Shown: positions 1 to 24,604, counted from the stretch's first letter. The stretch is 39,167 nt of DNA from an uncultured Methanosarcinales archaeon (GCA_964647565.1 CAZYIM010000003.1:67045-106211), one strand, 5' to 3'. Notes: a model not told the origin generated them from the letters alone. A program made the numbers and translations.

Positions 1-279
1 AATGGAAACGTGGTAGTGATCGATCAGAAAACCTCCCTAGCAAAGATTCCGAGCGGAAAAGTCATTGTGACTCAAATGACATCGCCATCCATGACACCCA
101 TTTTAAGGAAATCTAAGGCGATTGTTACAGATGAAGGAGGTATTCTGTGTCATGCTGCAAATGTTGCAAGGGAGTTTGGAATAATATCTGTAATCGGCAC
201 AAAGATTGCCACAAAAACACTCAAGGATGGCGATCTTGTAGAGGTTGATGCGAATAACGGGGTGATTAGACATGTCTGA
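1..279 (+). CDS. PEP-utilising enzyme mobile (phospho-His swivel) domain protein, 5'-partial (paralogue 1)
   Basis: Frame is open from base 1. Motif TDEGGILCHAANVAREFG...[22 protein letters not shown] is the same C-terminal domain as the downstream paralogues. Confidence 0.9.
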   Translation, partial: NGNVVVIDQKTSLAKIPSGKVIVTQMTSPSMTPILRKSKAIVTDEGGILCHAANVAREFGIISVIGTKIATKTLKDGDLVEVDANNGVIRHV

Positions 280-1567
280 TTGGCATCATCTGGGAAAATG
301 GGTTGAACCTGCTCTTGCAGCAGAGCTTTGGCTTGAATATGCTAGCTATGCCCAACAATTTTTCAAGGGAAAATTAGATGGACGGATTATGTTTCTCAAT
401 GGTGATTTTTTCTTATGGCAAAAAGATGTTGATATGATAGCACAGGAAAGCTATGCTGCTGCAAAGAATAAAGATGAAGATTTTTTCAAAAGAATTGAAC
501 TTAAAATTAGACAGGTAACCAAGTCTCTGAAAGATTCAGTTCATAAGATTGAATCTGTTGTTGATTTCCTGCAGGCATATAAGGAGTTGACAGGTATTTG
601 GATGCCTATAAATCCAATTGCTATTGGTGTAGAACGTTTTGTTCAAGAGACCAATCCTAAAGACTTTGATATTTCCAAAGGATTAACTTATGAAAAATCC
701 TGGACCATGCAGCAGGTTGAAGAGATCAGGTCAATTAAGAAGCAGATTGGATTTGTGCCTGAAGATGAGGCTGCTATTCCTGAGCAATTTCGCAAAATTG
801 TTCTTGATCATGTTAAAAAATATGAATGGCTGGGTTCGCATCACTTTAACATAAAAGAATTTACACTCAAGGAACTTCTTGACCGCATGAAGACAGATGA
901 AGAAGAGCCTGAATCTTCAGTTGAGATGTCTGGAGACGACGAGTATCTGGTGCAACTTCTTGACATGCTTGGCTTTTTGAGATTCAGATGTGCAGAAACC
1001 ACAGGTTATGTTACATTCTACCTAAAACCCTATCTTCAAAAGATGGCTGAAAAACATGACTTGACGTATGAAGATATTGTTGAGCATATGATTTGGGAGA
1101 TAGCTGGACAGAATCTGAAAAAAGAGATTGCAAATTCAAGAAAAGAAAATTTTGGGATGTTTTATGATGGTAAAGAACACATATTATCTGCAGGGGAAAT
1201 AAAAAAATATGAGAGCCTTCTATTAAATAATGAGGGTGAAGAAACTACTGAACTTAAAGGCTTGGTTGCTTTCAAAGGATCTGCAAAGGGCGAGGTAAAG
1301 ATCGTGACCTGTCAGGAAGATATGATTGGATTTGAAAAAGGCATGATTCTTGTGGCCTATGAGACTACACCAGATATAGTCATTGCAATGGAGAAATCAG
1401 CGGCAATTGTGACGGATTTTGGAGGTCTGACCAGCCATGCAGCAATAGTTGCCAGGGAATTGAAGATCCCTTGTATTGTAGGGACAAGATATGCCACTAA
1501 ATTTTTAAAAAATGGCGACCTTATAGATGTTGATGCAGAAAAAGGAGTTGTTAAGAGACTAAAATGA
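272..1567 (+). CDS. Variable N-terminal domain + phospho-His swivel domain protein (paralogue 2, 431 aa)
   Basis: C-terminal TDFGGLTSHAAIVARELKIPCIVG; central HVKKYEWLG motif; overlaps the previous stop (ATGTCTGA). Confidence 0.9.
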   Translation: MSDWHHLGKWVEPALAAELWLEYASYAQQFFKGKLDGRIMFLNGDFFLWQKDVDMIAQESYAAAKNKDEDFFKRIELKIRQVTKSLKDSVHKIESVVDFLQAYKELTGIWMPINPIAIGVERFVQETNPKDFDISKGLTYEKSWTMQQVEEIRSIKKQIGFVPEDEAAIPEQFRKIVLDHVKKYEWLGSHHFNIKEFTLKELLDRMKTDEEEPESSVEMSGDDEYLVQLLDMLGFLRFRCAETTGYVTFYLKPYLQKMAEKHDLTYEDIVEHMIWEIAGQNLKKEIANSRKENFGMFYDGKEHILSAGEIKKYESLLLNNEGEETTELKGLVAFKGSAKGEVKIVTCQEDMIGFEKGMILVAYETTPDIVIAMEKSAAIVTDFGGLTSHAAIVARELKIPCIVGTRYATKFLKNGDLIDVDAEKGVVKRLK

Positions 1568-2994
1568 CTAGCATGAAAAAACTTGATGTCCTTTTTAAAA
1601 ACAAGGTCGTAGATTATGAGGGTCGCAGACCAATGTTCTATTTCCTTAATGTTCTTGTTTCTAATGCCTGGTCTGTGTTTAAAGAAATGTATGGTGTGGA
1701 TGTAGGTGAGATTATTGATTCTACAAATAATCTTACAACTTTTTATACACTATACTCTGATCAGAGGATGTTTGCTGAGTTTGCAGATAGGATGATAAAT
1801 GATCAATCAACATTTGATAAATCCCTTAATGACGTGATAAAGGTAAAAGCAACTTTGATAAAAAGATTGAACTCTTCAGATTTTTCCAAATTCTCTGTTG
1901 CTGAATTGATAGAGTTTCTTGAAGAATATTATTCTGCTGTCCAGATGATGTATTATCCTGCTGTGTTCTTAAGAATGCTTGACAGAGGCTTGAAAATTAT
2001 TATTGATCAGCAATTTAAGAAACCAGAGAAACACCAAGAGATTATGCAAATTTTAAGTGAGACAGATATACCCAGTTTTAGTATGAAAGAGAGATTCGAA
2101 CTAGTTGAACTTGCAATAAAAATGTTGGTTAAGAATCTAGAGGTTGATTCTGATCTTGTGTCTGATGAACTAACAAGAATTCATAATACGTATTGTTGCA
2201 TAACACTAGGTAATTATACCGAACTGCCAAAAACAATCGAGTCTTATACGCAGGAAGTTAAAGAGATTTTAAAAGAAGGGCTTGATAAATTAAATGCAGA
2301 GCTTACAGATAGTCAACCAGAAAAGAAAAAACTTCCTGATTTTCTGGATAGCTACCAGCAAAAACTAATTATTCTTACTAGATCCAGTATGTCTCATAAA
2401 GATAATTTTAAGTTTTTTCTTAATCAGGTCTTTTACTTATCTCGTTCTTTGTTTTCTGAAATCTCAAAAAAGACCAGACAGCCTGTAGGTTTTTTAAAAG
2501 AGCTGTCGCCTGATGAGATGTTTTCTTTGTTAAGGAATGGAAAATTAGATAAGAAGTCATTTTCTAAAAAGGATTATGTTTTAATCGGGTACGACAACAA
2601 TGAAATCTTTTTAGAAGGAAAAGATGCTGAAATTTTTAGGAAAAGATTTCTTTACACAACCACAACTAATCAACAAGAGTTTTCAGGCCGAATTGCATGT
2701 ACAGGTTATGGTAAAGGGGCTGTTAAGATCGTCCATGGCGCAAAGGATTTCCATAAGTTTAAACCAGGAGATATTCTGGTGACCAGCAATACTTGTCCTA
2801 ATTTTGTTCCTTTGATGAAATTAGCAAATGCAATAATCGCTGAAGAAGGTGGACTTACTGCGCATGTGTCAGTTGTGTCCAGAGAATTCAATATCCCTTG
2901 TATTGTAGGCATACAGACTGCAACCAAGGTCTTTAAGGATGGTGATATTGTCGAAGTTGATGCAAAAAAAGGTGTTGTGAGGCGAATAGAATGA
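1564..2994 (+). CDS. Variable N-terminal domain + phospho-His swivel domain protein (paralogue 3, 476 aa)
   Basis: AEEGGLTAHVSVVSREFNIPCIVG; ATGA overlap with the upstream gene. Confidence 0.9.
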   Translation: MTSMKKLDVLFKNKVVDYEGRRPMFYFLNVLVSNAWSVFKEMYGVDVGEIIDSTNNLTTFYTLYSDQRMFAEFADRMINDQSTFDKSLNDVIKVKATLIKRLNSSDFSKFSVAELIEFLEEYYSAVQMMYYPAVFLRMLDRGLKIIIDQQFKKPEKHQEIMQILSETDIPSFSMKERFELVELAIKMLVKNLEVDSDLVSDELTRIHNTYCCITLGNYTELPKTIESYTQEVKEILKEGLDKLNAELTDSQPEKKKLPDFLDSYQQKLIILTRSSMSHKDNFKFFLNQVFYLSRSLFSEISKKTRQPVGFLKELSPDEMFSLLRNGKLDKKSFSKKDYVLIGYDNNEIFLEGKDAEIFRKRFLYTTTTNQQEFSGRIACTGYGKGAVKIVHGAKDFHKFKPGDILVTSNTCPNFVPLMKLANAIIAEEGGLTAHVSVVSREFNIPCIVGIQTATKVFKDGDIVEVDAKKGVVRRIE

Positions 2995-4409
2995 TTGATC
3001 CAAAAAAGAAGAACTGGAAATGGGGGCCCATTGACGGCCAGGTGATATATATTGATGATTTTATGGAGATGATGGTTGCCTGTAAGAAACTTACTGGCAT
3101 ATCCTGGAGCGATTGCTTGGTCCATATCAAGGAGAGTAAGGTAGTTTTTATCTCTGAGTTTGACGCCCTATACGAATGCGGAGAGAATATGTTCAGATCT
3201 TATATCCTTGATCTGAAAAAACGTACAAAATTTTATGATGCATGGCTAGTAGCTAAAGATAAAATTGTTGAGTTAATAGATTGTTTTACAGCTGAAGATT
3301 TAAAGAAGATGACCAATCAAGAACTTTTCTTCTTTATCAAGGATTTCTATACTATTTATGGACAATTCTGGTCTCACGGGCTTATTCCTGAAATAGCTAA
3401 TTTTGGCGGAGAGAAGTTGCTTAAATCCCATATTGAGTCAAAATACCCTGCGCAGGTCATTGACATCCTGGAGGTGCTTTCAGCACCTGAAGAACTCTCT
3501 TTTTACCAGATAGAAGAATTGGACCTATTAAGACTGAAGCTTGAAAAGAAGCCTCTTGAAGAGCACCAGAAGAAATATTTTTGGCTTGAAAACAGTTATG
3601 GTTCTGTAAAGATTGCAGATATAAAATCATTTCAAGAACGTATCGATATGCTCTCTGATAAAGAGGCTAAATCCAAGATAAAAGAGATTGAACATTTTCC
3701 AAAAAAGACTAAAGCCAAGAAAAAAGGCATCATAAAAAAATATTCGATAGCATCAGAAGTACAAACGATTGCTTCGGGATTGAGTTTTTCAATTTGGTGG
3801 CAGGATTATAGGAAAAAGTTCATTTTTATGGCGCTGCATATGATAACCTGCATTATTCGTGAGTTAGGCAGGAGATATGCTATTAAATTTAAAGAGCTGC
3901 TTTTATACTCGAGAAAAAATGTATTTGAGCTTGCTGAGACCAAAAAAAGAATCGATAATCTTAAAGATAGAAAACTTGGTTTTATTTCTTTTTATGATGC
4001 AGAGAATAACGACGGATTCAACTTGGTTGGTAAGGAAGCCAATGACCTGATCTCTCAATATACAAATCTAACTGTTGTAAAAAATGTCAAGGAGATCAAG
4101 GGATTAGTGGTCAGCAAGGGAAAAGTTAGTGGTAAGGTCCGCTTGCTTTCAGGAGCAAGACACTTTGATTCGTTTAGGGAAGGTGAGATATTAGTCACTG
4201 CCATGACATCTCCTGAGTTCATAGTTGCAATGAGAAAGGCCAAGGCGATTGTTACAGATGAAGGAGGTATGACCTGCCATGCTGCAATTGTCTCACGAGA
4301 ACTGGGCGTGCCTTGCATTGTGGCTACGAAAATAGCAACTAGAGCACTGACAACCGGCGAAATGGTCGAGGTTGATGCTGAAAAAGGAATTATTAGAAAA
4401 ATAAAATGA
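2991..4409 (+). CDS. Variable N-terminal domain + phospho-His swivel domain protein (paralogue 4, 472 aa)
   Basis: [31 protein letters not shown] and WWQDYRKK motifs; ATGA overlap. Confidence 0.9.
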   Translation: MIDPKKKNWKWGPIDGQVIYIDDFMEMMVACKKLTGISWSDCLVHIKESKVVFISEFDALYECGENMFRSYILDLKKRTKFYDAWLVAKDKIVELIDCFTAEDLKKMTNQELFFFIKDFYTIYGQFWSHGLIPEIANFGGEKLLKSHIESKYPAQVIDILEVLSAPEELSFYQIEELDLLRLKLEKKPLEEHQKKYFWLENSYGSVKIADIKSFQERIDMLSDKEAKSKIKEIEHFPKKTKAKKKGIIKKYSIASEVQTIASGLSFSIWWQDYRKKFIFMALHMITCIIRELGRRYAIKFKELLLYSRKNVFELAETKKRIDNLKDRKLGFISFYDAENNDGFNLVGKEANDLISQYTNLTVVKNVKEIKGLVVSKGKVSGKVRLLSGARHFDSFREGEILVTAMTSPEFIVAMRKAKAIVTDEGGMTCHAAIVSRELGVPCIVATKIATRALTTGEMVEVDAEKGIIRKIK

Positions 4410-5848
4410 CAATAAAATTATGCAAGAAGAAGATGGAGCCTGTGGTTAACAGGCATTATGTACTTCTAATGGGGGATTTTTTCTTGACCAGCTATTCACA
4501 TATTCAGCATTATGTCAAGATGTATGGCTGTGAGTTCTATACCCGCTGTGGATTTATGATCAACAAGTTCTATTACGGCCCAGAAGCCATGGACTTTGGT
4601 GATGTTGTATTTGAGATTGAAAAAAAGAAGCCGGGTACCATAATGAAGATCTTCAACTACATCTACGAGATTGGCGATGAACTGATGGCTCTTGCCAAAG
4701 AGATAAGAAAAACAAACTGGAAAGGCAAGTCTTACGAAGAGCTGGTTACTCAGTTCAAGGAATTCGGTAAAATGTATGAGTTCTTTTCACTTTCGCTGAT
4801 GGGCTACAACATCCAGTTTCCTATTGAGAAAAAACTCAAGGATTTTATAGGGAAAAAAGAGAATCCTGATGAGGCGCTTGCAATTCTTAGCTTTCCAAAA
4901 AAAGAGAATTTTCCTGCTTTGGAGCAAAAATCTTTATTGGCTTTAGCGTCGAAGGTTAAAAAATATAGTTCATATTCCACTTTGCCAAATAAAATTAGGA
5001 AAGAGCTTGAAGATCATGCTGAGGAGTATGGTTGGATTAATGCGCGGGGAGGCAAAGGAGATTCATGGACTCCTGAAGACATCTTCAAAAGGGCCAAGGA
5101 GTTAAAGGGTGATTATGGGGTGAGGTTAAAAGAGCTCGGTACACATCAGATTAATGCTAAGAACAAATCAGATGAACTACTCGACGAGATGAATGCAGAC
5201 AAAGAAGTCAGGGAATTGGTCGAAATGACTAAAGAGCTGGTCTATTTCAGGACATATAGAACTGATTATCTGAACAAATCTTTTGCATTGATACGACCCT
5301 TGCTTGAAGAGATGGGAGCTAAAAGAAACCTTAGCTATTATGATATGCTTTACCTGCTTAGAAAAGAAATTATCGACAATATTGAAGTAACTAAACCAGA
5401 GATAGAAAACAGGAAGCAGCATTATGCTTTTATGACATTGGAACCTGAGAAGGTATATTTCACTTCTAACGTAAGGGAGATTAAGGAGATATTAAATGAA
5501 CATTGCATGGAATTCTCTGCTGACAGCGACACTCTCAAAGGCCAGATAGCTAATAAGGGTATTGTAAAAGGCCCGGCTAAGATAATCTTTGGTAAGAAGG
5601 ATCTTGACAAAGTCAAGCCAGGCGATATACTTATAACTCCCATGACAACACCTAATTTCATTGTGGCCATGGAAAAAGCTGCGGCCTTTGTTACTGACGA
5701 AGGCGGCATAACATGTCATGCTGCCATTATTTCAAGAGAGATGAAGAAACCCTGCATCATCGGAACCAAGGTGGCAACCCAAGTCTTCAAAGATGGAGAT
5801 CTTGTCGAAGTCGATGCTGAGATAGGGATTGTAAAAAAAATAAAATGA
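4406..5848 (+). CDS. Variable N-terminal domain + phospho-His swivel domain protein (paralogue 5, 480 aa)
   Basis: TDEGGITCHAAIISREMKKPCIIG; HAEEYGW motif; ATGA overlap. Confidence 0.9.
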   Translation: MTIKLCKKKMEPVVNRHYVLLMGDFFLTSYSHIQHYVKMYGCEFYTRCGFMINKFYYGPEAMDFGDVVFEIEKKKPGTIMKIFNYIYEIGDELMALAKEIRKTNWKGKSYEELVTQFKEFGKMYEFFSLSLMGYNIQFPIEKKLKDFIGKKENPDEALAILSFPKKENFPALEQKSLLALASKVKKYSSYSTLPNKIRKELEDHAEEYGWINARGGKGDSWTPEDIFKRAKELKGDYGVRLKELGTHQINAKNKSDELLDEMNADKEVRELVEMTKELVYFRTYRTDYLNKSFALIRPLLEEMGAKRNLSYYDMLYLLRKEIIDNIEVTKPEIENRKQHYAFMTLEPEKVYFTSNVREIKEILNEHCMEFSADSDTLKGQIANKGIVKGPAKIIFGKKDLDKVKPGDILITPMTTPNFIVAMEKAAAFVTDEGGITCHAAIISREMKKPCIIGTKVATQVFKDGDLVEVDAEIGIVKKIK

Positions 5849-7383
5849 TAAACAAAAAGAAATTTGGAAAAATAATCAAACAGAAATGGCATGTACAGGG
5901 TTTCAATGCATGTATGAATTACATCTTTCATGCAGCTTATTCAGGATTGATCGATTGCCATGCTGAAGTTGGATATGGATATACTCAAAAATTATGGATC
6001 TTTAAAAAAGATTATGTCGAATATCACTATCTCGAAAATGACTTTAAAAATGTTGGACAAGAGTTCATGAAAAAATATCAACAAAACAAGAAATATTTGA
6101 AAAAACTTCTGGACAAAGAGTCTATAAGAGTCCGGGAAGCTATGGACTTGCTGGTATTTGTTGATAAGCAAAAACTAAGCAGACTAAATAAACAGGAACT
6201 TATTGACTTGTATCAGAAACTCTGGGGTGTATATCATCGACTGGTTGGTGTTAGTCACCTGATTGAGCCCATCACCTTTGTTGCAGAGCCAATGCTAAAA
6301 GCGAAGCTTGAAAAAACCACGAAACTTGACAGGCATTCCAAGGAGTTTCGTCAATTATTTACAGACCTTCTCCAGCCAGAACGCTCCTCGTTTATTAATG
6401 AGGAACAATTGAATTTAATGAAAATAATCAAGAGAATAAATTCTGATAAAAAAAGCAGTAAACTTTTCAAACTGCCTGCTGAAAAGATTATTAAAAAATT
6501 GGATCCTGTTTTGATTAGACTTATTTTGGCTCATAAAAGAAAATTCTATTACTTCCAGCTTAACTATTATTTTGGAGAAAGCTTGACTGAAATCGACTAT
6601 CTAAAAGAGATCAAAAAGCTGATCCAGTCAAAGATTGATCCCAACAAGTTCATCAAAGATGAAAAAGAACGTTATAAACAAAATAATCTAAGAAGAGATC
6701 TGCTTATTCAGGAATATAATATTGATAAGGATACTTATGACTTGATAAATCTTATAATGATTGTCCTGCATTGGCAGGATGATCGAAAAAAGTACATGCT
6801 TAGTTGTGTATATCACATAAATACCCTGATGAAAGAAATCAGCAGGAAGTATAAAATAGATCTTGATCTGCTTAAAAGATATATGCCTATGGATATTACA
6901 CATGAGCATCTTTCAAACTTTGATAAACAAGATGCTAAGGCACGAGAAAAACAATTTATGACTTATCTGACCCGAAAAAATAACCGGTTGGTGACAGAAA
7001 TCCTGGTTGGTGATGATTTCAAGGATTTCATGAGGCTATATCTCAAGAAAAGAATTTCCGAATCAGATCTTCATGGTATGGCCGCTTCTGTAGGTAGTGC
7101 TACTGGCTTTGTCAAGGTCTGCAAGACCAAGAAGGATCTTGACAAGGTGAACAAAGGAGATGTTCTCGTGGCTTCAATGACACGACCTGAGTTTGTGCCT
7201 GCTATGAGAAAAGCAGCAGCCATTATTACTGATGAGGGCGGTATAACATGCCATGCTGCAATTGTAAGCAGAGAGCTTGGTATTCCTTGTGTAATTGGTA
7301 CCAAAACTGCTACGAAGGTCTTAAAAGATGGAGACCTTGTAGAGGTGGCAGCCAATCATGGTATTGTCAAGAAAGTAAAATGA
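5845..7383 (+). CDS. Variable N-terminal domain + phospho-His swivel domain protein (paralogue 6, 512 aa)
   Basis: [32 protein letters not shown] motif; ATGA overlap. Confidence 0.9.
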   Translation: MINKKKFGKIIKQKWHVQGFNACMNYIFHAAYSGLIDCHAEVGYGYTQKLWIFKKDYVEYHYLENDFKNVGQEFMKKYQQNKKYLKKLLDKESIRVREAMDLLVFVDKQKLSRLNKQELIDLYQKLWGVYHRLVGVSHLIEPITFVAEPMLKAKLEKTTKLDRHSKEFRQLFTDLLQPERSSFINEEQLNLMKIIKRINSDKKSSKLFKLPAEKIIKKLDPVLIRLILAHKRKFYYFQLNYYFGESLTEIDYLKEIKKLIQSKIDPNKFIKDEKERYKQNNLRRDLLIQEYNIDKDTYDLINLIMIVLHWQDDRKKYMLSCVYHINTLMKEISRKYKIDLDLLKRYMPMDITHEHLSNFDKQDAKAREKQFMTYLTRKNNRLVTEILVGDDFKDFMRLYLKKRISESDLHGMAASVGSATGFVKVCKTKKDLDKVNKGDVLVASMTRPEFVPAMRKAAAIITDEGGITCHAAIVSRELGIPCVIGTKTATKVLKDGDLVEVAANHGIVKKVK

Positions 7384-8675
7384 AAAAATCAGAAATCCGT
7401 TACAAGCCAGAGCTGTGGCTGCATTGGGGTGAGTGGAGAATGGCTATGATCTTCACGTCTACTTGGATGGGATTTGAAAGGAGTAGGATCTTTAAAGAAC
7501 TTGATCTGGGTTTTTTTAAAGGGAACCTGAAAATTCTAAGGGGGAATTTCTACTATCTTAAATCAGATCATAACAGGCTTTCACAGTTCATTAGACAGAA
7601 CATTGATACTGATTGGTTCGAGAGATTCTTCAAGCTCCTTGAGCAAAATATGGGATATATTCGAAGTCTTGAAGACAAGTCGGACATCAAGTTGTTTATT
7701 ATGTATCATTTAGAGTATCTTGCCGGCTCATCATTGGTTGAGTTCACTGATCTTTGCATTGGTGACTATCTAAAAGAGGTTTGTGATCAAAGAGGTGTTT
7801 CTTTTGCAGATGTTGCAGCCTCTATGAATCCGCCAAAAAACACTTTGCTCATGCAGTACAATCAGGAACTTAAGGTCTTGAACAAATCAGATATTAAATC
7901 TTTTGTAGAAAAATACAGATGGGTGGGCACCCACGGGTTTGAAGGCGATCCTCTGACAGAGGACCAAGTTTTGATTGAACTTGAACAAGGACAAAAAGAG
8001 CCTGAACGCATCGATGCTCCTGAGGGTTTTGAGAGACTGATCGAGATTGGCTCCTGGCTTGCCTACTATCGCTCTCAACTAATAGAGGTATTCGACCAAG
8101 TCTGCTTTTCATACTGGCCAAAACTTAAGGATCTCGGAGAAAAACATAACTTATCATTCCAAGAAGTTATCTCCTTGTCGCATGTTGAACTTTGTGAATT
8201 AATAGACGATGGCAAAATACCAGATAAACTAAAAGAAAGGGGAAAGGACTTTGGCGTTATCTATAAGGATGGGGAGCTAATCATATTAGATCCTGATGAG
8301 GCAGAAAAGGAGTTGGAAATACACCAGGAAAAAATCGATCCAAACATTACTGAAGTCCGGGGCTTGTCTGCCAACAAGGGGCATGTGAAAGGCGTAGTTA
8401 AGATCATTCATATGCCTGAAGATATTAAAAAGGTGAATGAAGGAGACATTATCTTAGCATCTGAGACTCAACCGTTTTTTGTGCCGGCTATGGGCAAGGC
8501 AGCCGCCTTTGTAACTGATATCGGTGGATTAACAAGCCATGCAGCCATCACCAGCAGGGAAATGAACAAGCCCTGCATAATCGGGACCAAGATTGCAACC
8601 AGGGTTTTTAAGGATGGTGACTTGGTTGAAGTGGATGCAGACCGAGGGATTGTAAAAAAGCTTTTAAAACAATAA
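7380..8675 (+). CDS. Variable N-terminal domain + phospho-His swivel domain protein (paralogue 7, 431 aa)
   Basis: Start reassigned to ATG 7380 (MKKSEIRY), which gives the same ATGA overlap as its neighbours. TDIGGLTSHAAITSREMNKPCIIG. Confidence 0.88.
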   Translation: MKKSEIRYKPELWLHWGEWRMAMIFTSTWMGFERSRIFKELDLGFFKGNLKILRGNFYYLKSDHNRLSQFIRQNIDTDWFERFFKLLEQNMGYIRSLEDKSDIKLFIMYHLEYLAGSSLVEFTDLCIGDYLKEVCDQRGVSFADVAASMNPPKNTLLMQYNQELKVLNKSDIKSFVEKYRWVGTHGFEGDPLTEDQVLIELEQGQKEPERIDAPEGFERLIEIGSWLAYYRSQLIEVFDQVCFSYWPKLKDLGEKHNLSFQEVISLSHVELCELIDDGKIPDKLKERGKDFGVIYKDGELIILDPDEAEKELEIHQEKIDPNITEVRGLSANKGHVKGVVKIIHMPEDIKKVNEGDIILASETQPFFVPAMGKAAAFVTDIGGLTSHAAITSREMNKPCIIGTKIATRVFKDGDLVEVDADRGIVKKLLKQ

Positions 8676-8700
8676 ATATTTCATAAGAACATTCGGAGGT
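8655..8700 (+). promoter_or_regulatory. Possible internal BRE/TATA and strong Shine-Dalgarno for the ATP-grasp gene
   Basis: A-rich run followed by TTTTAAAA (8662-8669); GGAGGT at 8695-8700, 6 nt before ATG 8707. Confidence 0.5.
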
Positions 8701-8706
8701 ATTATT

Positions 8707-9594
8707 ATGACAGAAACAAAATTTAATTTCAGACCTGAAAAGATATTGTGGTTCAAGGATGTCAAGAAAGATGACATACCGTCTGTTGGCGGTAAGGGTG
8801 CCAACCTGGGAGAGATGTTCAATCACTTTCCGGTTCCAAATGGTTTTTGTGTCACAGTTGTTTCTTACAAGGAATTTATGGACCAGACTGGTGTGGGTGC
8901 GAAGCTTCACGGCATGCTCGACAAATTAGATGTGGATGATACTGAAGACCTTGAAAACACTTCAAAAAAATGCAGAGAATTGATCATGGGCAAGAAGCTT
9001 CCGGCCGACATTATCAAGGAGATTGTTGCCAACTATAATAAGCTGAAGAACAAGACTGTCGCTGTTAGGAGTTCTGCAACAGCAGAAGACCTGCCAACCG
9101 CAAGCTTTGCAGGCCAGCAGGATACCTATCTGAACATACAAGGTGACAATGCTGTTGTTGATGCTGTGCAAAGATGCTGGGCATCCTTATTTACCAGCAG
9201 GGCCATCTATTACAGAGAGAAGAATAACTTTAAGCATCGTGATGTTCTCATTTCGGTGGTCATACAAGAGATGATTGATCCTGAATATGCAGGTGTGATG
9301 TTCACTGTTGATCCTGTGAACAAGAAATACATCCTTGTCGAGGTTGTCGAAGGTTTGGGTGAGGCTCTTGTTTCTGGTCAAGTAACTCCTAACACATATT
9401 TCCTGAATAAGAAACTGCACAAGATTGAGGAAAAGACAGAGCATTTCTATATTGATGAAGAGCTAGTCGAAAAGGTGTCCCAGATTGGAGAGAAGATTGA
9501 AGCTCATTACAAATATCCTCAGGATGTTGAATGGGCGTTTGATAATGAAGGAACATTATTCATCTTGCAGAGCAGAGCAATAACAACACTATAA
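8707..9594 (+). CDS. Stand-alone PPDK/PEP-synthase N-terminal nucleotide-binding (ATP-grasp) domain protein, 295 aa
   Basis: VGGKGANLGEM, VPNGF, AVRSSATAEDLPTASFAGQQDTYLNI, GVMFT, GLGEALVSG, PQDVEWA, LQSRAIT. The protein stops at the domain end and has no His or pyruvate domain. Confidence 0.95.
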   Translation: MTETKFNFRPEKILWFKDVKKDDIPSVGGKGANLGEMFNHFPVPNGFCVTVVSYKEFMDQTGVGAKLHGMLDKLDVDDTEDLENTSKKCRELIMGKKLPADIIKEIVANYNKLKNKTVAVRSSATAEDLPTASFAGQQDTYLNIQGDNAVVDAVQRCWASLFTSRAIYYREKNNFKHRDVLISVVIQEMIDPEYAGVMFTVDPVNKKYILVEVVEGLGEALVSGQVTPNTYFLNKKLHKIEEKTEHFYIDEELVEKVSQIGEKIEAHYKYPQDVEWAFDNEGTLFILQSRAITTL

Positions 9595-11132
9595 TGCATT
9601 TAATAAAAAAGAAAGAGAACTGGGTAATTCTCGCTCGCGACAACAGGTCTCCTCTTCTACGTAATGCTATTTGGACTTATGCATTTGCTAACTGGAGTAA
9701 CTGGACTGATCTTCCAAATTTAGACTTGGGTGTAATATCTAGAAACAATGATATTGATTACATTGGCCTGATGTCAACCTGGAATAAAAATTGTAAGGTT
9801 CTTTTTGCCAAAGCCAAGAAAGATTTAGCTGTGATAGACAAAGCAATTGAGAATTCTTTTTCAAACGGTATTGAAATGAACAAGTTCACAGCTTCTATAT
9901 ATGAAAAAGACCTATCCAAATGTACTGCAAAACAACTTGTATCTTATTATACAAAATTCGGAGAATTTCAATCCAAACAATATATGTTTGGTGCGTTGCT
10001 TCCTTTAATTGAGATGGAGGATGCTTTTGTTGAGTCCACTGTCAGAAAATTCCTGGAATCTAAACTTTCAAAGAAAAAAGCCACGGAATATTATGGAGTT
10101 TTAACTTACCCAGAACATGACTCAGAAGGTCAAAAAGGAGAGCTGGCTCTTCTCAAGCTTTATAGTGGAATCATAAAGGATAAAGATACAAAGCAAAAAC
10201 TGAAGCAGGAAACTCCTCTGGGCTTTGTTAGTTATTTAAAAAAATCAAAACCTTCTTTGTACGCTGATATGGAAAAGCACTCACGGCAACACTCATGGGA
10301 GTTCTATGTGTTTATGGGTCCTGGCTACAAGTCTGAAAATTTTGTTTTGTTGTTGCAGGATTATCTTGTCAGAAATATCGATCCAGAAGTTGAGTTGAAG
10401 CGTTTGTCTGAGAGGAGAAAGTTCATAGATAAGGGAAAGAAAAGAATTATTGCTCAGCTCAAACCTGATGCCTGGACTAAAAGAATGCTATTGCTTATTG
10501 GTAGGATTGTTTGGGCAAAACCAAGAAGAAAAGATTATCAATTCCAATCCTACTTCCATATTGAGAAACTCCAAAAAGAGGTCGGTAAAAGATTGAACAT
10601 CCCTCTTGACCTTGTTAAATCAGCTTCTATTGATATTATCAGAGACATGCTGCTTAAGAAACAGCCCGTAGATATTGAATTCTTAAGATCTTTGCTTCAG
10701 CTACATGTAGTTTATCCTAGCAAAGGTAAGGTGGTGCTTCTTTATGGAAAAGAAGCTGAAAAATTCATTAAAGATCAAGTAAAATCCTCTGGCGACGCAA
10801 AGAACCTGAAGAAAAATGAACTGACTGGCAGCTGTGCTTGTGCAGGTAAGGTCAAAGGTATTGTTCGGATTATAAACTCTATTGAAGATATGTCCAAGAT
10901 GGAATACGGGGATATCTTGGTTGCTTGGGCCACTAATCCTGCGATTGTACCTGCAATGAAAAAGGCGGCTGCAATTGTTACCAATGAAGGAGGTCTGACC
11001 TGTCATGCGGCCATTGTATCCAGGGAACTTAACATCCCCTGTATTGTAGGCACTAAGATTGCAACAGAGGTATTGAAGGATGGCGATATCGTAGAGGTTG
11101 ATGCAGACAATGGTATTGTCAAAAAGAAATAA
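9594..11132 (+). CDS. Variable N-terminal domain + phospho-His swivel domain protein (paralogue 8, 512 aa)
   Basis: [29 protein letters not shown] overlap with the ATP-grasp gene. Confidence 0.9.
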   Translation: MHLIKKKENWVILARDNRSPLLRNAIWTYAFANWSNWTDLPNLDLGVISRNNDIDYIGLMSTWNKNCKVLFAKAKKDLAVIDKAIENSFSNGIEMNKFTASIYEKDLSKCTAKQLVSYYTKFGEFQSKQYMFGALLPLIEMEDAFVESTVRKFLESKLSKKKATEYYGVLTYPEHDSEGQKGELALLKLYSGIIKDKDTKQKLKQETPLGFVSYLKKSKPSLYADMEKHSRQHSWEFYVFMGPGYKSENFVLLLQDYLVRNIDPEVELKRLSERRKFIDKGKKRIIAQLKPDAWTKRMLLLIGRIVWAKPRRKDYQFQSYFHIEKLQKEVGKRLNIPLDLVKSASIDIIRDMLLKKQPVDIEFLRSLLQLHVVYPSKGKVVLLYGKEAEKFIKDQVKSSGDAKNLKKNELTGSCACAGKVKGIVRIINSIEDMSKMEYGDILVAWATNPAIVPAMKKAAAIVTNEGGLTCHAAIVSRELNIPCIVGTKIATEVLKDGDIVEVDADNGIVKKK

Positions 11133-11137
11133 TTCTT

Positions 11138-11857
11138 TTATTTTTTTGCAAACTGCCACATGAAATTGAAGTATTTTCTATAAGCTTCTGCGATCTGACT
11201 GTTCTCGATGACAATCGCCATGATTGTATCTGTTGCTAATAGGATGACCACTATGTTGCCGCAGATGTCCATCATTGCAGGATTCTTGTATTTGTCAGGA
11301 AGAAATTTGATCTTCCATAATTTCTCTTTGTCTGATTGTTTCTCTTTTCTTCTATATTCATAATATAGGGCGTTGACCCATATATTCTTAGCAATCCTTT
11401 CCCTGTCCCATTTTATATGCCTGTGTTTTAGGAATTTTCTGTTTAAACCTGAGCCTCCTATTGCATAGATGGTTTCATTCTGAGCTAATATCATATTATA
11501 AGCTGCCATCACCCCTTCAGGCCCTTTGAAATAATGGACTTCTTGTTTCTCTTTTCTTGTATCATAGATATTCTTAAGCTCAGGCATCGCTTGTTTGACA
11601 CTCTCTTGCTTTGATTCAAGAAGTTTAATCAGATTTTCAGGATTAGATGCTTCATAATGCCTCTTGTTGGATATCATTACTGAATCTATCAATCCTTTGA
11701 TCTGCAATCTTTCGATCACATCATAGACATTGACCCTGTGAACTCCTGATTTTTTAGTAATCTCATTTATAGAGGCAGATCCCAACTTTAATAGTGCAAG
11801 ATAGACTCTTGCCTCGTTTACAGTCAGTCCTGCATCAAATAAGGCGGATATCTCCAT
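11138..11857 (-). CDS. TrmB-family transcriptional regulator (wHTH + effector domain)
   Basis: GLTVNEARVYLALLKLG...SGVHRVNVYDVIERLQIKGL...YEASNPENL; C-terminal AEAYRKYFNFMW. Confidence 0.9.
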   Translation of the reverse strand: MEISALFDAGLTVNEARVYLALLKLGSASINEITKKSGVHRVNVYDVIERLQIKGLIDSVMISNKRHYEASNPENLIKLLESKQESVKQAMPELKNIYDTRKEKQEVHYFKGPEGVMAAYNMILAQNETIYAIGGSGLNRKFLKHRHIKWDRERIAKNIWVNALYYEYRRKEKQSDKEKLWKIKFLPDKYKNPAMMDICGNIVVILLATDTIMAIVIENSQIAEAYRKYFNFMWQFAKK

Positions 11858-11881
11858 TTTGCTTATTAATTGTATTTCACA

Positions 11882-11935
11882 TATTTAAACTTTTTCAAAA
11901 TGTTGTAACAATTGTTACTACAAGGATATATATAC
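11882..11935. promoter_or_regulatory. Divergent TATA boxes flanking a 22 bp near-perfect palindrome (putative TrmB operator)
   Basis: Minus-strand BRE-TATA GAAAAAG-TTTAAATA (TATA at 11882-11889); TGTTGTAACAATTGTTACTACA at 11901-11922 with a perfect 14 bp core at 11905-11918; plus-strand TATATATA near 11927-11934. Confidence 0.7.
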
Positions 11936-11959
11936 TGGTTTCTCCTAACTGTTACTATC

Positions 11960-13525
11960 ATGAAGAAATCAAAATCCCTACTGAAAAAAACCCTTAAAAA
12001 CTTGAAAGATAAGCAATGGTATCATCAGCGATTTGACGGTAGTCCATATCTTATGCAGGCTATTGCAGAGAATGAGCTGAAAACTGAAGCTAGGAAGAAG
12101 AAAGTCGGTGGAAATCATACTTTACGATTCTGCTTCTTTGAAAATGATCGGGCAGACTGGTATATTATCCTGGACGATATAGATATGTGTACCAAGGCGA
12201 TGCTCAGAGTTGCAAAACAAGACCGTCTTATCAGTAAAAAGTTGCTAAAGGCGTGGGACGCTGATGATATTGAATTCTATAAAAAATGTAAAGAAATTAA
12301 AAAGCTAGATCTTAGCAAGCTGACTGATAATCAATTAATCAGGATCCATAATGAACTTTATGCAGCTATCTCAAAAAGGAATACTTCTAGTGCTATAATC
12401 GATGGTTTTGCACTTGGTTCTGATCAGGTTATAGCCAAGATGGTCATGTCTTTATTAAAGAAAAGAGGCCTTCAGGACAACTATCCTGAACTTTTCTCCA
12501 AGCTTACTGCGCCTACCCGACAGTCTTTCATAAATGAGGCAGAGATATCTTTGTTAAAGATCGCCAAAAAGATCCAGAAAAACAAGAGACTTTCTGAGTG
12601 CATAAAGAAAAATCCTGTGACAAAATGTATTCAACTTCTAGATAGGTTTTCCGAAATCAAATCTGCTCTAGAAAAACATGTTAATAAATATTTCTGGTCC
12701 AAGAATAACTATGTGATGGCATATTATCTTGATGAAAAAGCTTTCATGAAAGAGATAAAGGAGATACTTTCAACAGGTTTGGACATTGACGAAGAGATCA
12801 AAAAGATATCTTCAACACCCAAGAGAAACCAGCTTGTCAAGATGGAACTCTTAAAAAAGCTTAAGGTTGACAAATATCTCAAGACCTTGCTGACTATTTC
12901 AGACGATTTTACTTGGTGGCAGGATGAACGGAAGAAGGCTTCTTATTGGAATGCACATTACTCTACATTGTTATTGACAGCTATTGGCAAGAGAACAGGA
13001 TTTTCCCTTCATGAACTTAAATATATGTCTCCTTCAGAAATCAAGTCGGTATTTGAGAATCCTCTTCCGTTAAAAGAGATCAGGAACAGAATGTTCAAGT
13101 GTGTCTTCTGCTGGAAAGGATCTGAATTTGAAGTCATCACAGGTAGCGAGGTTGAAAAAATTAAGCATTTCCTTCTTGGAAATCAAGATCAATCTTCAGT
13201 CACTGAGATTGCAGGTCTTAGCGCTTCAGTTGGTAAGGTTGTTGGAAAAGTCAAGGTCTGTAGGAGCGCTACAGAGGTTGATAAAGTAAAACCTGGTGAT
13301 ATACTAGTAGCAGTCATGACCCGACCTGATTATGTAATGGGTATGAAACGGGCGGGTGCAATTGTTACTAATGAAGGTGGAATAACATCTCATGCAGCTA
13401 TTGTTAGCAGAGAACTCGGAATACCTTGTGTGATCGGTACTAAGATTGCAACAAAAATATTCAAGGACGGCGACCTTGTAGAGGTTGATGCAGACAATGG
13501 TATTGTTAAGAAAGTGGATGCTTAG
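11960..13525 (+). CDS. Variable N-terminal domain + phospho-His swivel domain protein (paralogue 9, 521 aa)
   Basis: ATG 11960 lies ~25 nt after the TATA (leaderless). [31 protein letters not shown] and WWQDERKK motifs. Confidence 0.9.
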
Positions 13526-13854
13526 TTATGTTTAATTCTAACTGGTACTTTACTAATTTGGTTCTTTGATTTTAATATTAGTTCGCTCTTGTGCAGTTTT
13601 TCTACCTTTTTACAAGGTATTTTCAATTCAACAAGCTGTATCTCTTTTGGCTTAAGCACTACTTTTTTTGGATGTTTGAGCAGATCATGCTCTTCAATAG
13701 TTATTGTGAGTTTTTTATCTGTCAGATTTGATAATCTTATCTCTTCAATTATGGTCTTATCATGATTCTTCTCTAACTCTATCTTCTTTGAAGTGTAGAT
13801 TGATGTGAAAAACTCATCCATTTCAGCGAAATCATAACTGAATTCCTTTTTCAT
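13522..13854 (-). CDS. Hypothetical protein (beta-rich, possibly Ig-like)
   Basis: 110 aa ORF with an ATGA overlap to the upstream minus-strand gene. Confidence 0.6.
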
Positions 13855-14747
13855 TTTTTCTTTTCTCCGGTTTTAACCTTTTCGATCTTGCCATTGTCAG
13901 TGTCAAATTTAATAACAGTGTCAATATCCATGTTGTGGATATTAATCTCCTTGTCTCCTAGCTGGAGTTGGTAATCCTGATCTGGCTCATGAAGATGGCC
14001 ATGGAAAACATCAATATCTTTTTTTGGATTGTGTTCTGCAATCTTCTCTAAGAGAGTGTCGTAATGTGCTCTTAATGGAGTAGGTAGTCTCTTATCGACC
14101 TTGAGACCCTCATACCAGTTCTCTGGTCGTGGACTCTCGTGCATAAGCACAACAATATGTTCTGTTTTCATGCCTTTGATTTTTTTTGCCAGCCTTTGAT
14201 AGAGCTTATTCTTGTTCATCTCTTCTTTTATAGCATCATATTCCTTTTCCTGATGCTGAGCATTAATTCTCCTGTCATGAGGAACATAGACAAAGGTTGT
14301 ATTGCCATCTTTTCTTATCTGGATATCATTTTTTATCTGTTCCAGAGCAGAGTTTTTGCCGCCAAAGAACTCATCAAAACTATGTCCTGTTGTCTTTTCG
14401 ACCTCTTTTCCTAGATTTTCATCACTGTTGCCTTCTATTGAGGTTATGGATGCGTGCCCTTTGAGCCGTCGCATATAGTCCTTGTGTTTTGCAGTATCTC
14501 TTGCTACTTTCCTGAACCATGATTTCTCAACTTGCTTGAATTTTTTCATGTCTCCCTTGAAATAAGCATCGATAGCAGGATGGTTGGCAAGATCTTCGGG
14601 ACCATTGGGTACAGCAGAATATAGTAACCAGTCTCCTGTTGAGCTTACTCTAAGCTTCCTGCTTGTTTTATTAGCTTCGTTGAGAAGATAGTCTGAAACC
14701 TTCTTGTGTCCGTGATGCAAGTCTCCAAATATATAATGAGTTCCCAT
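13851..14747 (-). CDS. Calcineurin-like metallophosphoesterase
   Basis: GDLH, TGDW, EGNSD, MHESP and HGHLH motifs in canonical order. Confidence 0.8.
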   Translation of the reverse strand: MGTHYIFGDLHHGHKKVSDYLLNEANKTSRKLRVSSTGDWLLYSAVPNGPEDLANHPAIDAYFKGDMKKFKQVEKSWFRKVARDTAKHKDYMRRLKGHASITSIEGNSDENLGKEVEKTTGHSFDEFFGGKNSALEQIKNDIQIRKDGNTTFVYVPHDRRINAQHQEKEYDAIKEEMNKNKLYQRLAKKIKGMKTEHIVVLMHESPRPENWYEGLKVDKRLPTPLRAHYDTLLEKIAEHNPKKDIDVFHGHLHEPDQDYQLQLGDKEINIHNMDIDTVIKFDTDNGKIEKVKTGEKKK

Positions 14748-14858: not shown

Positions 14859-15575
14859 ATGGGATACGCAGAAACCGTTTGTACGGGAAATAATGGCAGA
14901 AGCCCTCTATCTGAAACCATAGGTAAGGATCATATAAGGAAAAAATATCCTGTTTTCGCAACTAATTTTAGCATGGTTTCAAGTGGAACACTAGCAGGAT
15001 TAGTTGAAAATTATCCATTCCCCATAGAACAATCTTTATTTCTTATGAAGACAGCTTACAAGAACCATGCAGTTACAGGTAAGTTTTACGAATTACCTGC
15101 TCAAGCCAAATTTGTAGAGCAATTATTGGATTTAGATTCAGAAAAGATTGCTGAAAAATATAAGCTTGACTTTGAATTCCAGATAACCCTGAATTCAATG
15201 GGCAAACTTACCCTTGAACGTGCCCACAAACACGAGCAAAAAGAGAGAGATGAATATCTTGCTAATATGGGTTTGAGTGTTGATGCAGACACAAGATATA
15301 ACAAACAAACCAAGCCCAGATCTGATGTAAGGATCGTCTGGGGTATGAAGCAAAGTAATGTTGACCAGATCAATGGAATCTATGCCAATTCTAAAATCAC
15401 GCCTCCAAGAGGTATCCATGTCATTACAGACTATGCCGACACAGAGCCTTTGATAGATGCATTCCTAAGTCCGGACAAGGAGAAGGTCTTCCATCTGTAC
15501 GACCAGATTGCAGATGCAACTAAGAAAGCCATAGATCGATTCATGGATGAAGAATTCTTAAGACATAACGATTGA
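14859..15575 (+). CDS. Low-molecular-weight protein tyrosine phosphatase / ArsC-fold protein with a large insertion
   Basis: N-terminal P-loop VCTGNNGRSPLSE (CX5RS), SSGT motif, and a C-terminal LIDAF where DP(Y/F) usually sits. Confidence 0.75.
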   Translation: MGYAETVCTGNNGRSPLSETIGKDHIRKKYPVFATNFSMVSSGTLAGLVENYPFPIEQSLFLMKTAYKNHAVTGKFYELPAQAKFVEQLLDLDSEKIAEKYKLDFEFQITLNSMGKLTLERAHKHEQKERDEYLANMGLSVDADTRYNKQTKPRSDVRIVWGMKQSNVDQINGIYANSKITPPRGIHVITDYADTEPLIDAFLSPDKEKVFHLYDQIADATKKAIDRFMDEEFLRHND

Positions 15576-15711: not shown

Positions 15712-16362
15712 ATGGATCAACTGAAGGCCATATTCTTTGACTGTTGGGGAACTTTGTTCTATAATAATAACAAGCCATCTGCGATGGTCAGGTTTGCTAA
15801 TCGTATAGGCAGAAACTGGCGTGACTATGATTACATGAAGCTCTATGAGAACCATTTCCAGACAGATAATTTTGAAGATGTTGAAGATAAGATTATGAGT
15901 TTTCTTGATAAGTTGGACGTTGTTGTCGAACCGGGGATGGTAGAAGAGCTTAAAGAGATTTATATGCTAAATTGTATTAACATAAAGGTATTTCCAGAAA
16001 CTAAAGCTGTTTTAGATAAGCTGAAGAAAGAGTATACAATCGCATTGATCAGTAACGTATCTGTTCAATCCTTTAATGCGCTCAAAAAGACGTTTCCAGA
16101 GATAATAAAAATGTTCGATGCTATGACACTTTCATTTGAGGAAGGCTGTAATAAACCGGTGGAGAAGATGTTTCTTTGTACATTAGAAAAACTCAAACTA
16201 AAACCTGAAGAGGCGATGATGGTAGGCGATCATTATAAGGATGATTTTCTTCCTTCTCAGGCTCTTGGACTAAAAGCTGTCTGCATTGATAGGAGAAAGC
16301 GCTTTCCAGAGTGTCCAATAAGGATTTTTTCTTTAGAAGAGCTTGACAGATATATCAAATGA
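15712..16362 (+). CDS. HAD-superfamily hydrolase
   Basis: FFDCWGTL, LISN, KP, MVGDHYKDD. Confidence 0.9.
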   Translation: MDQLKAIFFDCWGTLFYNNNKPSAMVRFANRIGRNWRDYDYMKLYENHFQTDNFEDVEDKIMSFLDKLDVVVEPGMVEELKEIYMLNCINIKVFPETKAVLDKLKKEYTIALISNVSVQSFNALKKTFPEIIKMFDAMTLSFEEGCNKPVEKMFLCTLEKLKLKPEEAMMVGDHYKDDFLPSQALGLKAVCIDRRKRFPECPIRIFSLEELDRYIK

Positions 16363-16815: not shown

Positions 16816-16837
16816 AAATTTCTTTATAGGCATAAAA

Positions 16838-16845
16838 TTTATAAA
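16838..16845. promoter_or_regulatory. Palindromic TATA box shared by rpiB and rpe
   Basis: TTTATAAA lies 22 nt from each start codon (16815 and 16868), with A-rich BRE-like flanks on both strands. Confidence 0.65.
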
Positions 16846-16867
16846 CTTTTTCCCATATTTAATACCT

Positions 16868-18037: not shown

Positions 18038-18041
18038 TTTA

Positions 18042-19241: not shown

Positions 19242-19381
19242 ATAAACCACCCCGTTGAATTCAGAACCTTTCTATTGTCGAGACATAATGCAACCCAATA
19301 TATAAAGATTGCTATACTGTAAAATAGTGTAGTATTGGCCCAGCCAAAAAATATTAAAAGCTGGTTCGCTCTAAAATCATC

Positions 19382-24528: not shown

Positions 24529-24586
24529 GTGTTACACCTCTTTTTATCTTTACTACTTAATGGTGGTTAAACTATTTAAATATTGG

Positions 24587-24604
24587 TGGTGGTATTTACC
24601 ACCA
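24587..24604. promoter_or_regulatory. Inverted repeat, putative operator of the second TrmB
   Basis: TGGTGGTA-TT-TACCACCA between divergent TATA-like boxes; extra TGGTGGT half-site at 24561. Confidence 0.6.

Follow-up and report, generated by a model that had tools for sequence, protein, structure and literature searches.

The stretch of DNA analyzed here (GCA_964647565.1 CAZYIM010000003.1:67045-106211; 39,167 nt, referred to in its entirety as the window) comes from a small-celled marine archaeon of the DPANN group, and its first third holds genes for what is probably a split small-molecule dikinase with many acceptor subunits. The window corresponds to C3:67045-106211 of assembly G000 (2.68 Mb, 86 contigs, 87% complete, 1.85% contaminated). 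Open reading frames (ORFs) in the window were listed and then scanned with Pfam. Nine ORFs within 1-13525 end in a phospho-His swivel domain (PF00391; E values of 3e-23 to 7e-27), and all nine carry GGxxxH with an intact His codon. We refer to their products as acceptors.

An array of acceptor genes around one ATP-grasp gene

The window contains eight complete acceptor genes and one that is broken, all on the plus strand. The broken gene is represented by a swivel end (1..279; E = 3.3e-23; GGILCH, His codon 151-153). It is followed by acceptors of 431 amino acids (aa) (272..1567; a helical N-terminal domain plus swivel, E = 2.2e-26; TDFGGLTSH, His389, codon 1436-1438), 476 aa (1564..2994; E = 3.6e-23; GGLTAH, His434, codon 2863-2865), 472 aa (2991..4409; His430, codon 4278-4280), 480 aa (4406..5848; His438, codon 5717-5719), 512 aa (5845..7383; His470, codon 7252-7254), and 431 aa (7380..8675; His codon 8538-8540), each with a PF00391 swivel. 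Next comes a gene for a stand-alone ATP-grasp protein of the HpeI-like type (8707..9594, plus strand; 295 aa; PF01326, E = 2e-94) and then an acceptor of 512 aa (9594..11132; His471, codon 11004-11006), which overlaps the ATP-grasp stop codon by 1 nt and, given that overlap, is the likely ancestral partner of the ATP-grasp protein. A TrmB-family transcription regulator is embedded on the minus strand (11138..11857; PF01978, E = 3.6e-16). The last acceptor (11960..13525; 521 aa; His codon 13391-13393) is divergent from the TrmB gene and forms a transcription unit of its own; its orthologue in genome G036 has an N-terminal domain that is 38% identical. Two gene starts given in a first-pass annotation of this DNA were likely placed too far upstream: the ORF open from 7248 likely starts at 7380, where an ATG overlaps the previous stop, and the ORF open from a TTG at 11912 likely starts at the ATG at 11960.

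The array spans C3:48092-80569 (32 kb), and the portion inside the window is its last third. It comprises 24 ORFs with a swivel or an acceptor N-terminal domain, equivalent to 23 acceptor genes of which one is split by a frameshift, and 23 of the 49 swivel-bearing acceptor ORFs of the assembly sit on contig C3. A series of 22 acceptor ORFs, representing 21 genes and beginning at C3:48092, leads up to the ATP-grasp gene, nearly all of them joined by 4-nt ATGA overlaps; then follow a 31-nt gap, the ATP-grasp gene, the acceptor with the 1-nt overlap, the TrmB gene on the opposite strand, and the last acceptor. All but one of the 23 acceptor genes, together with the ATP-grasp gene, form one tightly overlapping run. 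The N-terminal part of the gene at 1-279 lies just upstream in a different frame (C3:66201-67160, versus C3:66979-67323 for the swivel part), and the 319-aa and 114-aa pieces overlap by 182 nt, an apparent frameshift; the gene may be a pseudogene, or the break may have arisen in assembly, at a depth of ~5x. The eight complete copies counted earlier stand, but the window edge alone does not account for the truncation of the first ORF, and the array starts at C3:48092.

Forty-nine acceptor ORFs and one stand-alone ATP-grasp gene in the genome

PF00391 matches 53 places in G000. With a custom swivel hidden Markov model (HMM), 53 domains were detected in 51 ORFs, among them a phosphoenolpyruvate (PEP) synthase (C42, 805 aa) and a pyruvate phosphate dikinase (PPDK; C23, 878 aa). 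The remaining 49 acceptor-type ORFs carry 51 swivel domains, include two double-module proteins (995 and 999 aa) and five fragments, and total 63,672 nt, or 2.4% of the assembly. Of the 51 domains, 48 retain GGxxxH; of the other three, one reads EEGFLSH, one has a single-residue insertion, and one is a fragment of 61 aa. A short class of acceptor (334-371 aa) accounts for 13 of the 49 ORFs and has no member in the window. The acceptor count is not inflated by strain duplicates, as no two N-terminal domains are more than 41% identical.

A search with PF01326 found one stand-alone ATP-grasp gene, at 8707-9594, versus the 49 acceptor ORFs. No further ATP-grasp genes lie upstream that would bring the ratio near 1:1, and the one-gene-to-one-gene pairing of known two-component dikinases is absent. 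Four other genes match PF01326: the PEP synthase, the PPDK, a fused protein of 699 aa on C5, and a protein of 664 aa on C20. The C5 product (C5:25003-27102, minus strand) is a divergent single-chain protein resembling rifampin phosphotransferase (RPH), with a swivel-like end that PF00391 misses, and the C20 product (C20:44244-46238, minus strand) has a degenerate ATP-grasp domain and a long acidic low-complexity tail. The PEP/pyruvate barrel (PF02896) was found in none of the window ORFs scanned and, in G000, only inside the C42 PEP synthase and the C23 PPDK. The first-pass annotation had noticed nine paralogues ending in a GGxxxH swivel, exactly one stand-alone ATP-grasp gene in the array, an embedded TrmB regulator, and no pyruvate/PEP barrel in the window; each observation was reproduced, and the ATP-grasp gene proved to be the sole one of its kind in the assembly.

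The ATP-grasp protein aligns from residue 12 to its C-terminal ITTL with PEP synthase (PDB 8a8e; E = 2.5e-72) and with RPH (5hv6, E = 1.9e-59; 5fbs), the RPH entries falling between 1e-58 and 2e-59. Because the alignments with 8a8e and 5hv6 run from end to end, the protein is a whole domain and not a fragment. Approximately 50 residues are invariant among 41 homologues, and the motifs GGKGANLGE, RSSATAEDL, and QSR are conserved. A 387-aa protein deposited as "phosphoenolpyruvate synthase" (PDB 9goj) also matches, at an E value of 7e-50. The gene thus supplies the separate ATP-grasp subunit that is found in two-component dikinases of the HpeHI/CreHI/PpsAB type.

Predicted fold of the acceptors

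Sequence comparison recognizes only the swivel in the acceptors; a full-protein profile reaches RPH in the PDB at an E value of 3e-27, and a profile of the N-terminal domain by itself matched nothing relevant among PDB sequences. Structure was predicted for one acceptor of each length class. The model of the long acceptor at 9594-11132 (50-row alignment; pLDDT, 93.1) retrieved RPH-Lm first in Foldseek (E = 5e-15; TMq, 0.61 to 0.65), and the next folds reached a TMq of ~0.2 on the swivel only. When superposed on RPH-Lm (VIA), the model gave a Z score of 21.9 and a root mean square deviation (rmsd) of 4.7 over 452 residues, with model residues 4-512 on RPH residues 324-866. Its N-terminal domain alone gave a Z score of 13.5 over 340 residues (4-399 on RPH 324-751), against RPH entries with the swivel elsewhere. 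The model of a short acceptor, C3:65167-66204 (58-row alignment; pLDDT, 94.6), gave a Z score of 20.3 and an rmsd of 4.3, with 298 of 345 residues placed on RPH 321-867. Identity in the structural alignments with RPH is 14-20%. Profiles of the short and long N-terminal domains align with each other over their last 74 columns only (hhalign probability, 96.9%), and the fold shared by the two classes is therefore read from the structure models and not from profile alignment. We conclude that both acceptor classes, as represented by one model each (2 of 49), are predicted to correspond to the half of RPH that comprises the substrate domain and the swivel, with no nucleotide-binding fold of their own, which agrees with the RPH-like N-terminal fold expected in the first-pass annotation. 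An RPH-like domain followed by a His swivel is also what makes up the second subunit of two-component dikinases.

Ten dikinase-type proteins were scanned against NCBIfam, and none of the models reached its cutoff. The RPH models scored 49-70 bits (NF041857; cutoff, 999) and 35-53 bits (NF000283; cutoff, 1700) on the nine acceptors scanned, and the proteins are accordingly not RPH proper, which is a single chain that reaches the curated score; here the genes are split, and the scores are 35-70 bits. Pfam found no carbohydrate-binding or other extra domain in the nine window acceptors. An apparent sugar-epimerase fusion, P0260, was rejected as spurious: its match to UDP-GlcNAc 2-epimerase (PF02350) scored 26 bits against a cutoff of 30.6 and fell on the swivel of a two-module protein.

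Acceptor paralogues are mostly old

Within G000, only 168 of 1035 pairs of N-terminal domains are detectable by BLASTP, with a median identity of 23.6% and a maximum of 40.7%, which bears out the very divergent N termini reported at first. The median identity among swivel domains is 50%. Searches with two window paralogues returned over 100 relatives apiece, with identities of 39-46% and 39-62%. The records are named as Woesearchaeota, Nanoarchaeota, Micrarchaeota, and, on the bacterial side, Patescibacteria, as had been guessed for archaea of the DPANN group and bacteria of the Candidate Phyla Radiation (CPR). Orthologues of acceptor 2991..4409 reach at most 59% identity in records named Woesearchaeota or Nanoarchaeota and 40-42% in Patescibacteria. 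A tree was built from 106 units, 46 from G000 and the rest from four genomes of other families. The sister clade contained other genomes only for 24 of the 46 G000 units, was mixed for 11, and contained G000 only for 11. Because 24 and a further 11 units have foreign or mixed neighbors, these have been kept since before family-level lineages split. Moreover, the swivels follow orthology: in 39 of 40 cases, similarity to the orthologue exceeds the average for paralogues of the same genome. A representative library searched with a short-class query returned 566 proteins at an E value of ≤1e-30 and 23,655 at ≤0.001, the latter including all swivel-bearing proteins.

One explanation for so many copies is that most are decaying, functionless duplicates, as might be suggested by the apparently frameshifted member and by four short fragments elsewhere in the assembly. 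The conservation data contradict it, and we give it next to no credence: the motif is kept almost throughout, frames are open over 334-548 aa, and the tree places the majority of units beside other genomes. The two paralogues checked, moreover, have more than 100 orthologues each at ~40-59% identity. We conclude that the paralogues, judged from sequence, mostly represent old, long-kept distinct specificities common to DPANN archaea and CPR bacteria and not a recent burst. The library of interchangeable subunits that the first-pass annotation had envisaged is therefore not borne out, the paralogues being mostly distinct old subfamilies with orthologues elsewhere.

Comparative evidence for probable sharing of one ATP-grasp subunit

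The distribution of the genes was examined in 401 genomes of the order, each at least 80% complete (14 unpublished genomes are included, among them G316 and G368); swivel matches were scored up to 14 per genome, and bins were counted by hand. Most genomes have one to three swivel matches and 41 have at least 10. G000 had the most first-look swivel candidates of the sample (56) and, at 2.68 Mb, is also its largest genome, the rest being ≤2.3 Mb in rounded sizes. PF01326 was then sought in 14 genomes with at least 12 swivel matches and in 10 near-complete genomes with one or two, all of which are relatives, such that the counts are no statistical test. All 14 high-copy genomes have a PEP synthase and one HpeI-like ATP-grasp scoring at least 262 bits. 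In 13 of them this ATP-grasp is a stand-alone protein (frames of 296-360 aa), and in G357 it is part of an array protein; G074 carries a fused copy in addition to its stand-alone one. None of the 10 low-copy genomes has an HpeI-like ATP-grasp at that score. One of them, G358, has a 546-aa frame with a PF01326 match at 136 bits. The complete, closed genome G016, in which the single swivel match is the PEP synthase, has a divergent stand-alone ATP-grasp of 312 aa and 148 bits (G016:C1:438229-439104) with no visible acceptor.

Natural fusions join one ATP-grasp domain to several acceptor modules. Proteins of 1641 aa (G008) and 1695 aa (G079) each combine an ATP-grasp with three modules, which follow it in the G008 protein; a 2265-aa protein (G266) has an ATP-grasp and four modules; and in G357 three modules precede a C-terminal ATP-grasp with 71% identity to that of the window over 288 residues. 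One ATP site tied to several modules in single proteins is the strongest genetic argument for one charger and many acceptors. Other large proteins were also seen in relatives. A 2815-aa protein of G007 (L060, G007:C7, 3320-11767, minus strand) and a 1980-aa ORF in a 3768-aa open frame (L077, G308:C18, 9021-14963, minus strand) each have five swivels and no ATP-grasp in frame. PPDK_N-like ATP-grasp matches at G271:C1:72086-73090 and G007:C1:29728-30606 lie inside open frames of 13,972 and 6,471 aa and would be ATP-grasp domains in giant proteins of Woesearchaeota-type genomes.

The alternative nearest to hand is that the pairing is strictly 1:1, with the ATP-grasp protein serving only the adjacent acceptor at 9594-11132 and the other ~48 acting independently of ATP, for example by moving phosphate between phospho-metabolites via the His. 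Several observations would suit such a pair and thus weigh against sharing. The adjacent acceptor overlaps the ATP-grasp stop codon, and it has many orthologues, some of which occur as 1:1 fusions with an ATP-grasp (P0053, 832 aa; P0085). According to the passages of PMC12167813 that describe it, HpeH, the substrate-plus-swivel subunit of HpeHI, transfers phosphate alone from 4-phosphoacetophenone to acetovanillone without HpeI, and acceptors could therefore act without a charger. Recurrent phosphatase-type neighbors would also fit a metabolism of phospho-compounds. The strict pairing leaves unexplained, however, single natural proteins with one ATP-grasp and three or four modules, the presence of the ATP-grasp in 14 of 14 high-copy versus 0 of 10 low-copy genomes, and the 21 further acceptor genes in the overlapping run of the ATP-grasp gene, and we consider it unlikely.

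Other points also weigh against a shared charger. The assembly is incomplete, so a second ATP-grasp gene may be unassembled. The swivels bear no genome-specific signature, the mean identity being 51.3% among same-genome paralogues and 50.4% among cross-genome nonorthologues. The link between the N-terminal domains and RPH rests on two predicted models, as the N-domain profile finds nothing in the PDB. G000 keeps ordinary kinases (five PfkB matches and one ROK match), and the simple idea that acceptors replace missing kinases is unsupported given these matches. The multimer modeling suggested in the first-pass annotation was carried out for one acceptor, 2991-4409. A complex of this acceptor (alignment of 48 rows) and the ATP-grasp protein (41 rows) in the presence of ATP and Mg scored 0.32, 0.20, and 0.21 in three runs, a median of 0.21 against a mark of 0.32 in a prediction made without controls. 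We count this result as evidence neither way.

A different donor for the acceptors, either PEP by way of PEP synthase or PPDK or else an unrecognized kinase, would make the ATP-grasp protein a side player. The acceptor swivels are closest by sequence to PEP synthase (8a8e, E = 5e-48; best partial NCBIfam matches), and G000 has one PEP synthase and one PPDK. Nevertheless, there is no free PEP-binding barrel in G000, PF02896 being confined to those two enzymes; low-copy relatives have PEP synthase without acceptors or stand-alone ATP-grasp, whereas the ATP-grasp tracks the acceptors; and the fusions link acceptors to the HpeI-like type of ATP-grasp. We regard a different donor as highly improbable. 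We conclude that three comparative lines, namely, distribution in the order, fusions, and operon structure, support the sharing of one ATP-grasp protein by many acceptors and that the one-to-many arrangement put forward in the first-pass annotation thereby gains support from co-occurrence and from the 1:3 and 1:4 fusions.

Accessory and neighboring genes

Downstream of the array, two overlapping minus-strand ORFs of 110 and 298 aa (13522-13854 and 13851-14747) have no Pfam or NCBIfam match and separate the last acceptor from a plus-strand gene for a 238-aa Cys phosphatase-type protein resembling low-molecular-weight protein tyrosine phosphatases (LMW-PTPs) (14859..15575; PF01451, 27.1 bits against a cutoff of 23.2). 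The match covers profile positions 4-45 of 144 only, with a weak second HMM stretch, and LMW-PTPs in the PDB match over the P-loop at an E value of 3.5e-7; NCBIfam gave no match. The C-X5-R-(S/T) signature is present as a CX5R-S P-loop, VCTGNNGRS, that is conserved in three aligned homologues, and the same three-sequence alignment has one invariant Asp near the C terminus. The protein is ~70 aa longer than typical LMW-PTPs.

All three LMW-PTP-like genes of G000 lie beside acceptor genes, at distances of 1334 nt (14859-15575), 54 nt (C4:46265-46888), and 3 nt (C6:71007-71723), and the latter two precede orthologous short-class acceptors, a pair that is also found in G039. The family (E ≤ 1e-10) occurs in 31 of the 401 genomes: 19 of the 41 with at least 10 swivel matches (including G368), 10 of ~43 with four to nine, and 2 of ~317 with three or fewer. 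In G000, G026, G074, G357, G133, G066, and G094, no more than ~5 kb separates the LMW-PTP-like gene from that of the ATP-grasp. We read the LMW-PTP-like protein, a candidate accessory, as a real part of the system, to judge from gene distribution and position; it could dephosphorylate products, reset the His, or serve as a phospho-Cys relay.

A gene for a HAD-family phosphatase-type hydrolase (15712..16362, plus strand; PF00702, E = 1.8e-17) adjoins the LMW-PTP-like gene, and its membership in the system is uncertain. In G036, G039, G079, and G308, too, HAD genes adjoin acceptor genes, TrmB genes stand beside arrays in G026, G036, and G039, and metallophosphoesterase and histidine-phosphatase genes abut acceptors in relatives; these recurrences are counts without a background rate. 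Farther along (16363-20917, 24583-25392, and 37238-38956) lie genes for RpiB, ribulose-phosphate epimerase, a phosphoribosyltransferase-domain protein, phosphofructokinase, cofactor-independent phosphoglycerate mutase, three HAD hydrolases, a second TrmB, and a glycogen phosphorylase-like protein. TrmB regulators are named for sugar sensing. The flank is a sugar-phosphate neighborhood, and together with TrmB it gives a weak hint of substrate.

These neighbors bear on whether the targets might be macromolecules (glucans, cell-surface polymers, or proteins) or the proteins might be regulators. Glucan-water dikinases apply the same His chemistry to starch. Glycogen phosphorylase and sugar-phosphate enzymes nearby, TrmB regulators that recur beside arrays, and an accessory from a family best known for protein phosphatases would all suit such targets. 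The acceptors themselves point elsewhere, as both modeled N-terminal domains match, almost from end to end, the RPH domain that binds the small molecule rifampin and the nine window proteins carry no carbohydrate-binding or other extra Pfam domain. Moreover, the characterized relatives with this domain all act on small molecules in the relevant passages of PMC12167813 and PMC4844700. Macromolecular targets or a regulatory role therefore appear quite improbable.

The public runs for this locus were all DNA, with no RNA run listed. Eight such DNA runs from two marine/seawater studies, which may derive from the source sample, yielded contigs that match the locus at 0 differences and that span the junctions at 272, 8675/8707, and 9594 at a contig depth of ~5x. 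Summed contig depth rises from ~4 to 22-30 in the bins 8119-8569 and 9021-9471, a rise caused by ~300x contigs that match only 26 nt either side of a conserved motif and that are probably from abundant other organisms. Two apparent joints in these runs (sides of 23-26 nt; one at ~300x) are read as cross-mapping of the conserved swivel motif.

Proposed mechanism

Taken together, the locus probably encodes a split dikinase for small molecules, of the same type as RPH and HpeHI but multiplexed. In the proposed mechanism, the single ATP-grasp protein would bind ATP and pass the beta-phosphate to the swivel His of whichever acceptor docks, with release of AMP and Pi. The charged swivel would turn back to the helical N-terminal domain of its own chain, which is predicted to have the RPH rifampin-binding fold, and a small molecule bound there would be phosphorylated. 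Some 49 acceptors, nine of them in 1-13525 and 23 in the C3 array, would share one ATP module, and as they belong mostly to different old subfamilies, each presumably has its own substrate. The TrmB-type regulator and, in many genomes, the LMW-PTP-like Cys phosphatase travel with the system.

A bolder version would make the system a branched phosphorelay and a major, hitherto unrecognized metabolic organ of ultrasmall archaea and bacteria. One ATP-grasp charger would serve dozens of His carriers, each dedicated to its own metabolite, and in some branches the phosphate would go by way of the active-site Cys of the co-inherited LMW-PTP-like protein to its target. The LMW-PTP-like protein presumably shares its fold type with the EIIB-cellobiose component of the sugar phosphotransferase system (PTS), and the relay would amount to a PTS analogue powered by ATP. 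We consider this version decidedly unlikely; if true, it would explain why up to 2.4% of a genome is spent on one family.

For the split dikinase itself, sharing, if true, would be a novel strategy for assembling a set of kinases from a common charger and cheap substrate modules. It would also give a biochemical role to many genes labeled "PEP-utilizing enzyme", which in some such genomes rank with the most expanded families. The arrangement is seen repeatedly in DPANN archaea and CPR bacteria. The system offers dozens of candidate natural ATP-dependent small-molecule kinases for enzyme discovery, and the substrates of the acceptors would show what symbionts take from their hosts or surroundings.

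Comparison with known systems

The enzyme type is already known, and two-component forms were described between 2022 and 2025. Our search of full-text literature outside subscription journals and supplements returned no account of one-to-many arrays or of swivel-domain expansion in DPANN or CPR genomes, and a term search of PMC8421398 gave no mention of PEP-utilizing enzymes or dikinases in the text that it covered. The one-to-many version of a known two-part kinase is thus probably undescribed. The first-pass annotation had likewise known of no characterized one-to-many system, and that much agrees with the literature searched, but it had missed the closest characterized relatives, HpeHI and CreHI (PMC12167813).

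PEP synthase, PPDK, and PTS Enzyme I have a phospho-His swivel domain in common with the acceptors, and the first two also share the ATP-grasp domain. Unlike these, the acceptors have no PEP/pyruvate barrel and carry a helical substrate domain in its place. RPH-Lm (PDB 5FBS/5FBT/5HV1) shares the acceptor fold over RPH residues ~321-867 (Z scores of 20-22) and has a homologous ATP-grasp and a substrate domain that precedes the swivel. RPH-Lm is, however, one chain of ~865 aa, whereas the parts are split here, and nothing points to a rifamycin substrate. The prodiginine ligases PigC, RedH, and HapC belong to the same three-domain family, and residues 214-469 of acceptor 2991-4409 match RedH 628-876 in a partial NCBIfam match. 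They differ in being single chains in which phosphorylation activates an aldehyde for condensation, and the scores here are 50-83 bits against cutoffs of 1300-1350.

The nearest parallels are HpeHI, CreHI, and the phenylphosphate synthase PpsAB. As set out in the portions of PMC12167813 devoted to it, HpeHI is a characterized two-component RPH homologue from Rhodococcus in which HpeI is the ATP-grasp subunit, HpeH is the substrate-plus-swivel subunit, and the catalytic His is essential; the subunits form no stable complex, hence their interaction is transient, and HpeH, CreH, and PpsA are mutually ~45% identical. All three systems resemble the present one in having a separate HpeI-like ATP-grasp and a separate RPH-like/swivel subunit with the motif T/S-x-x-G-G-x-x-x-H, a likeness that is judged here from domain layout and motif. 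Split RPH-type dikinases have been known only as 1:1 pairs that serve a few aromatic compounds, in aromatic-catabolism operons of free-living bacteria. Here, in contrast, one ATP subunit of a DPANN archaeon appears to serve ~49 modules outside any aromatic-catabolism context, an acceptor class of 334-371 aa is present, and relatives carry natural 1:3 and 1:4 fusions.

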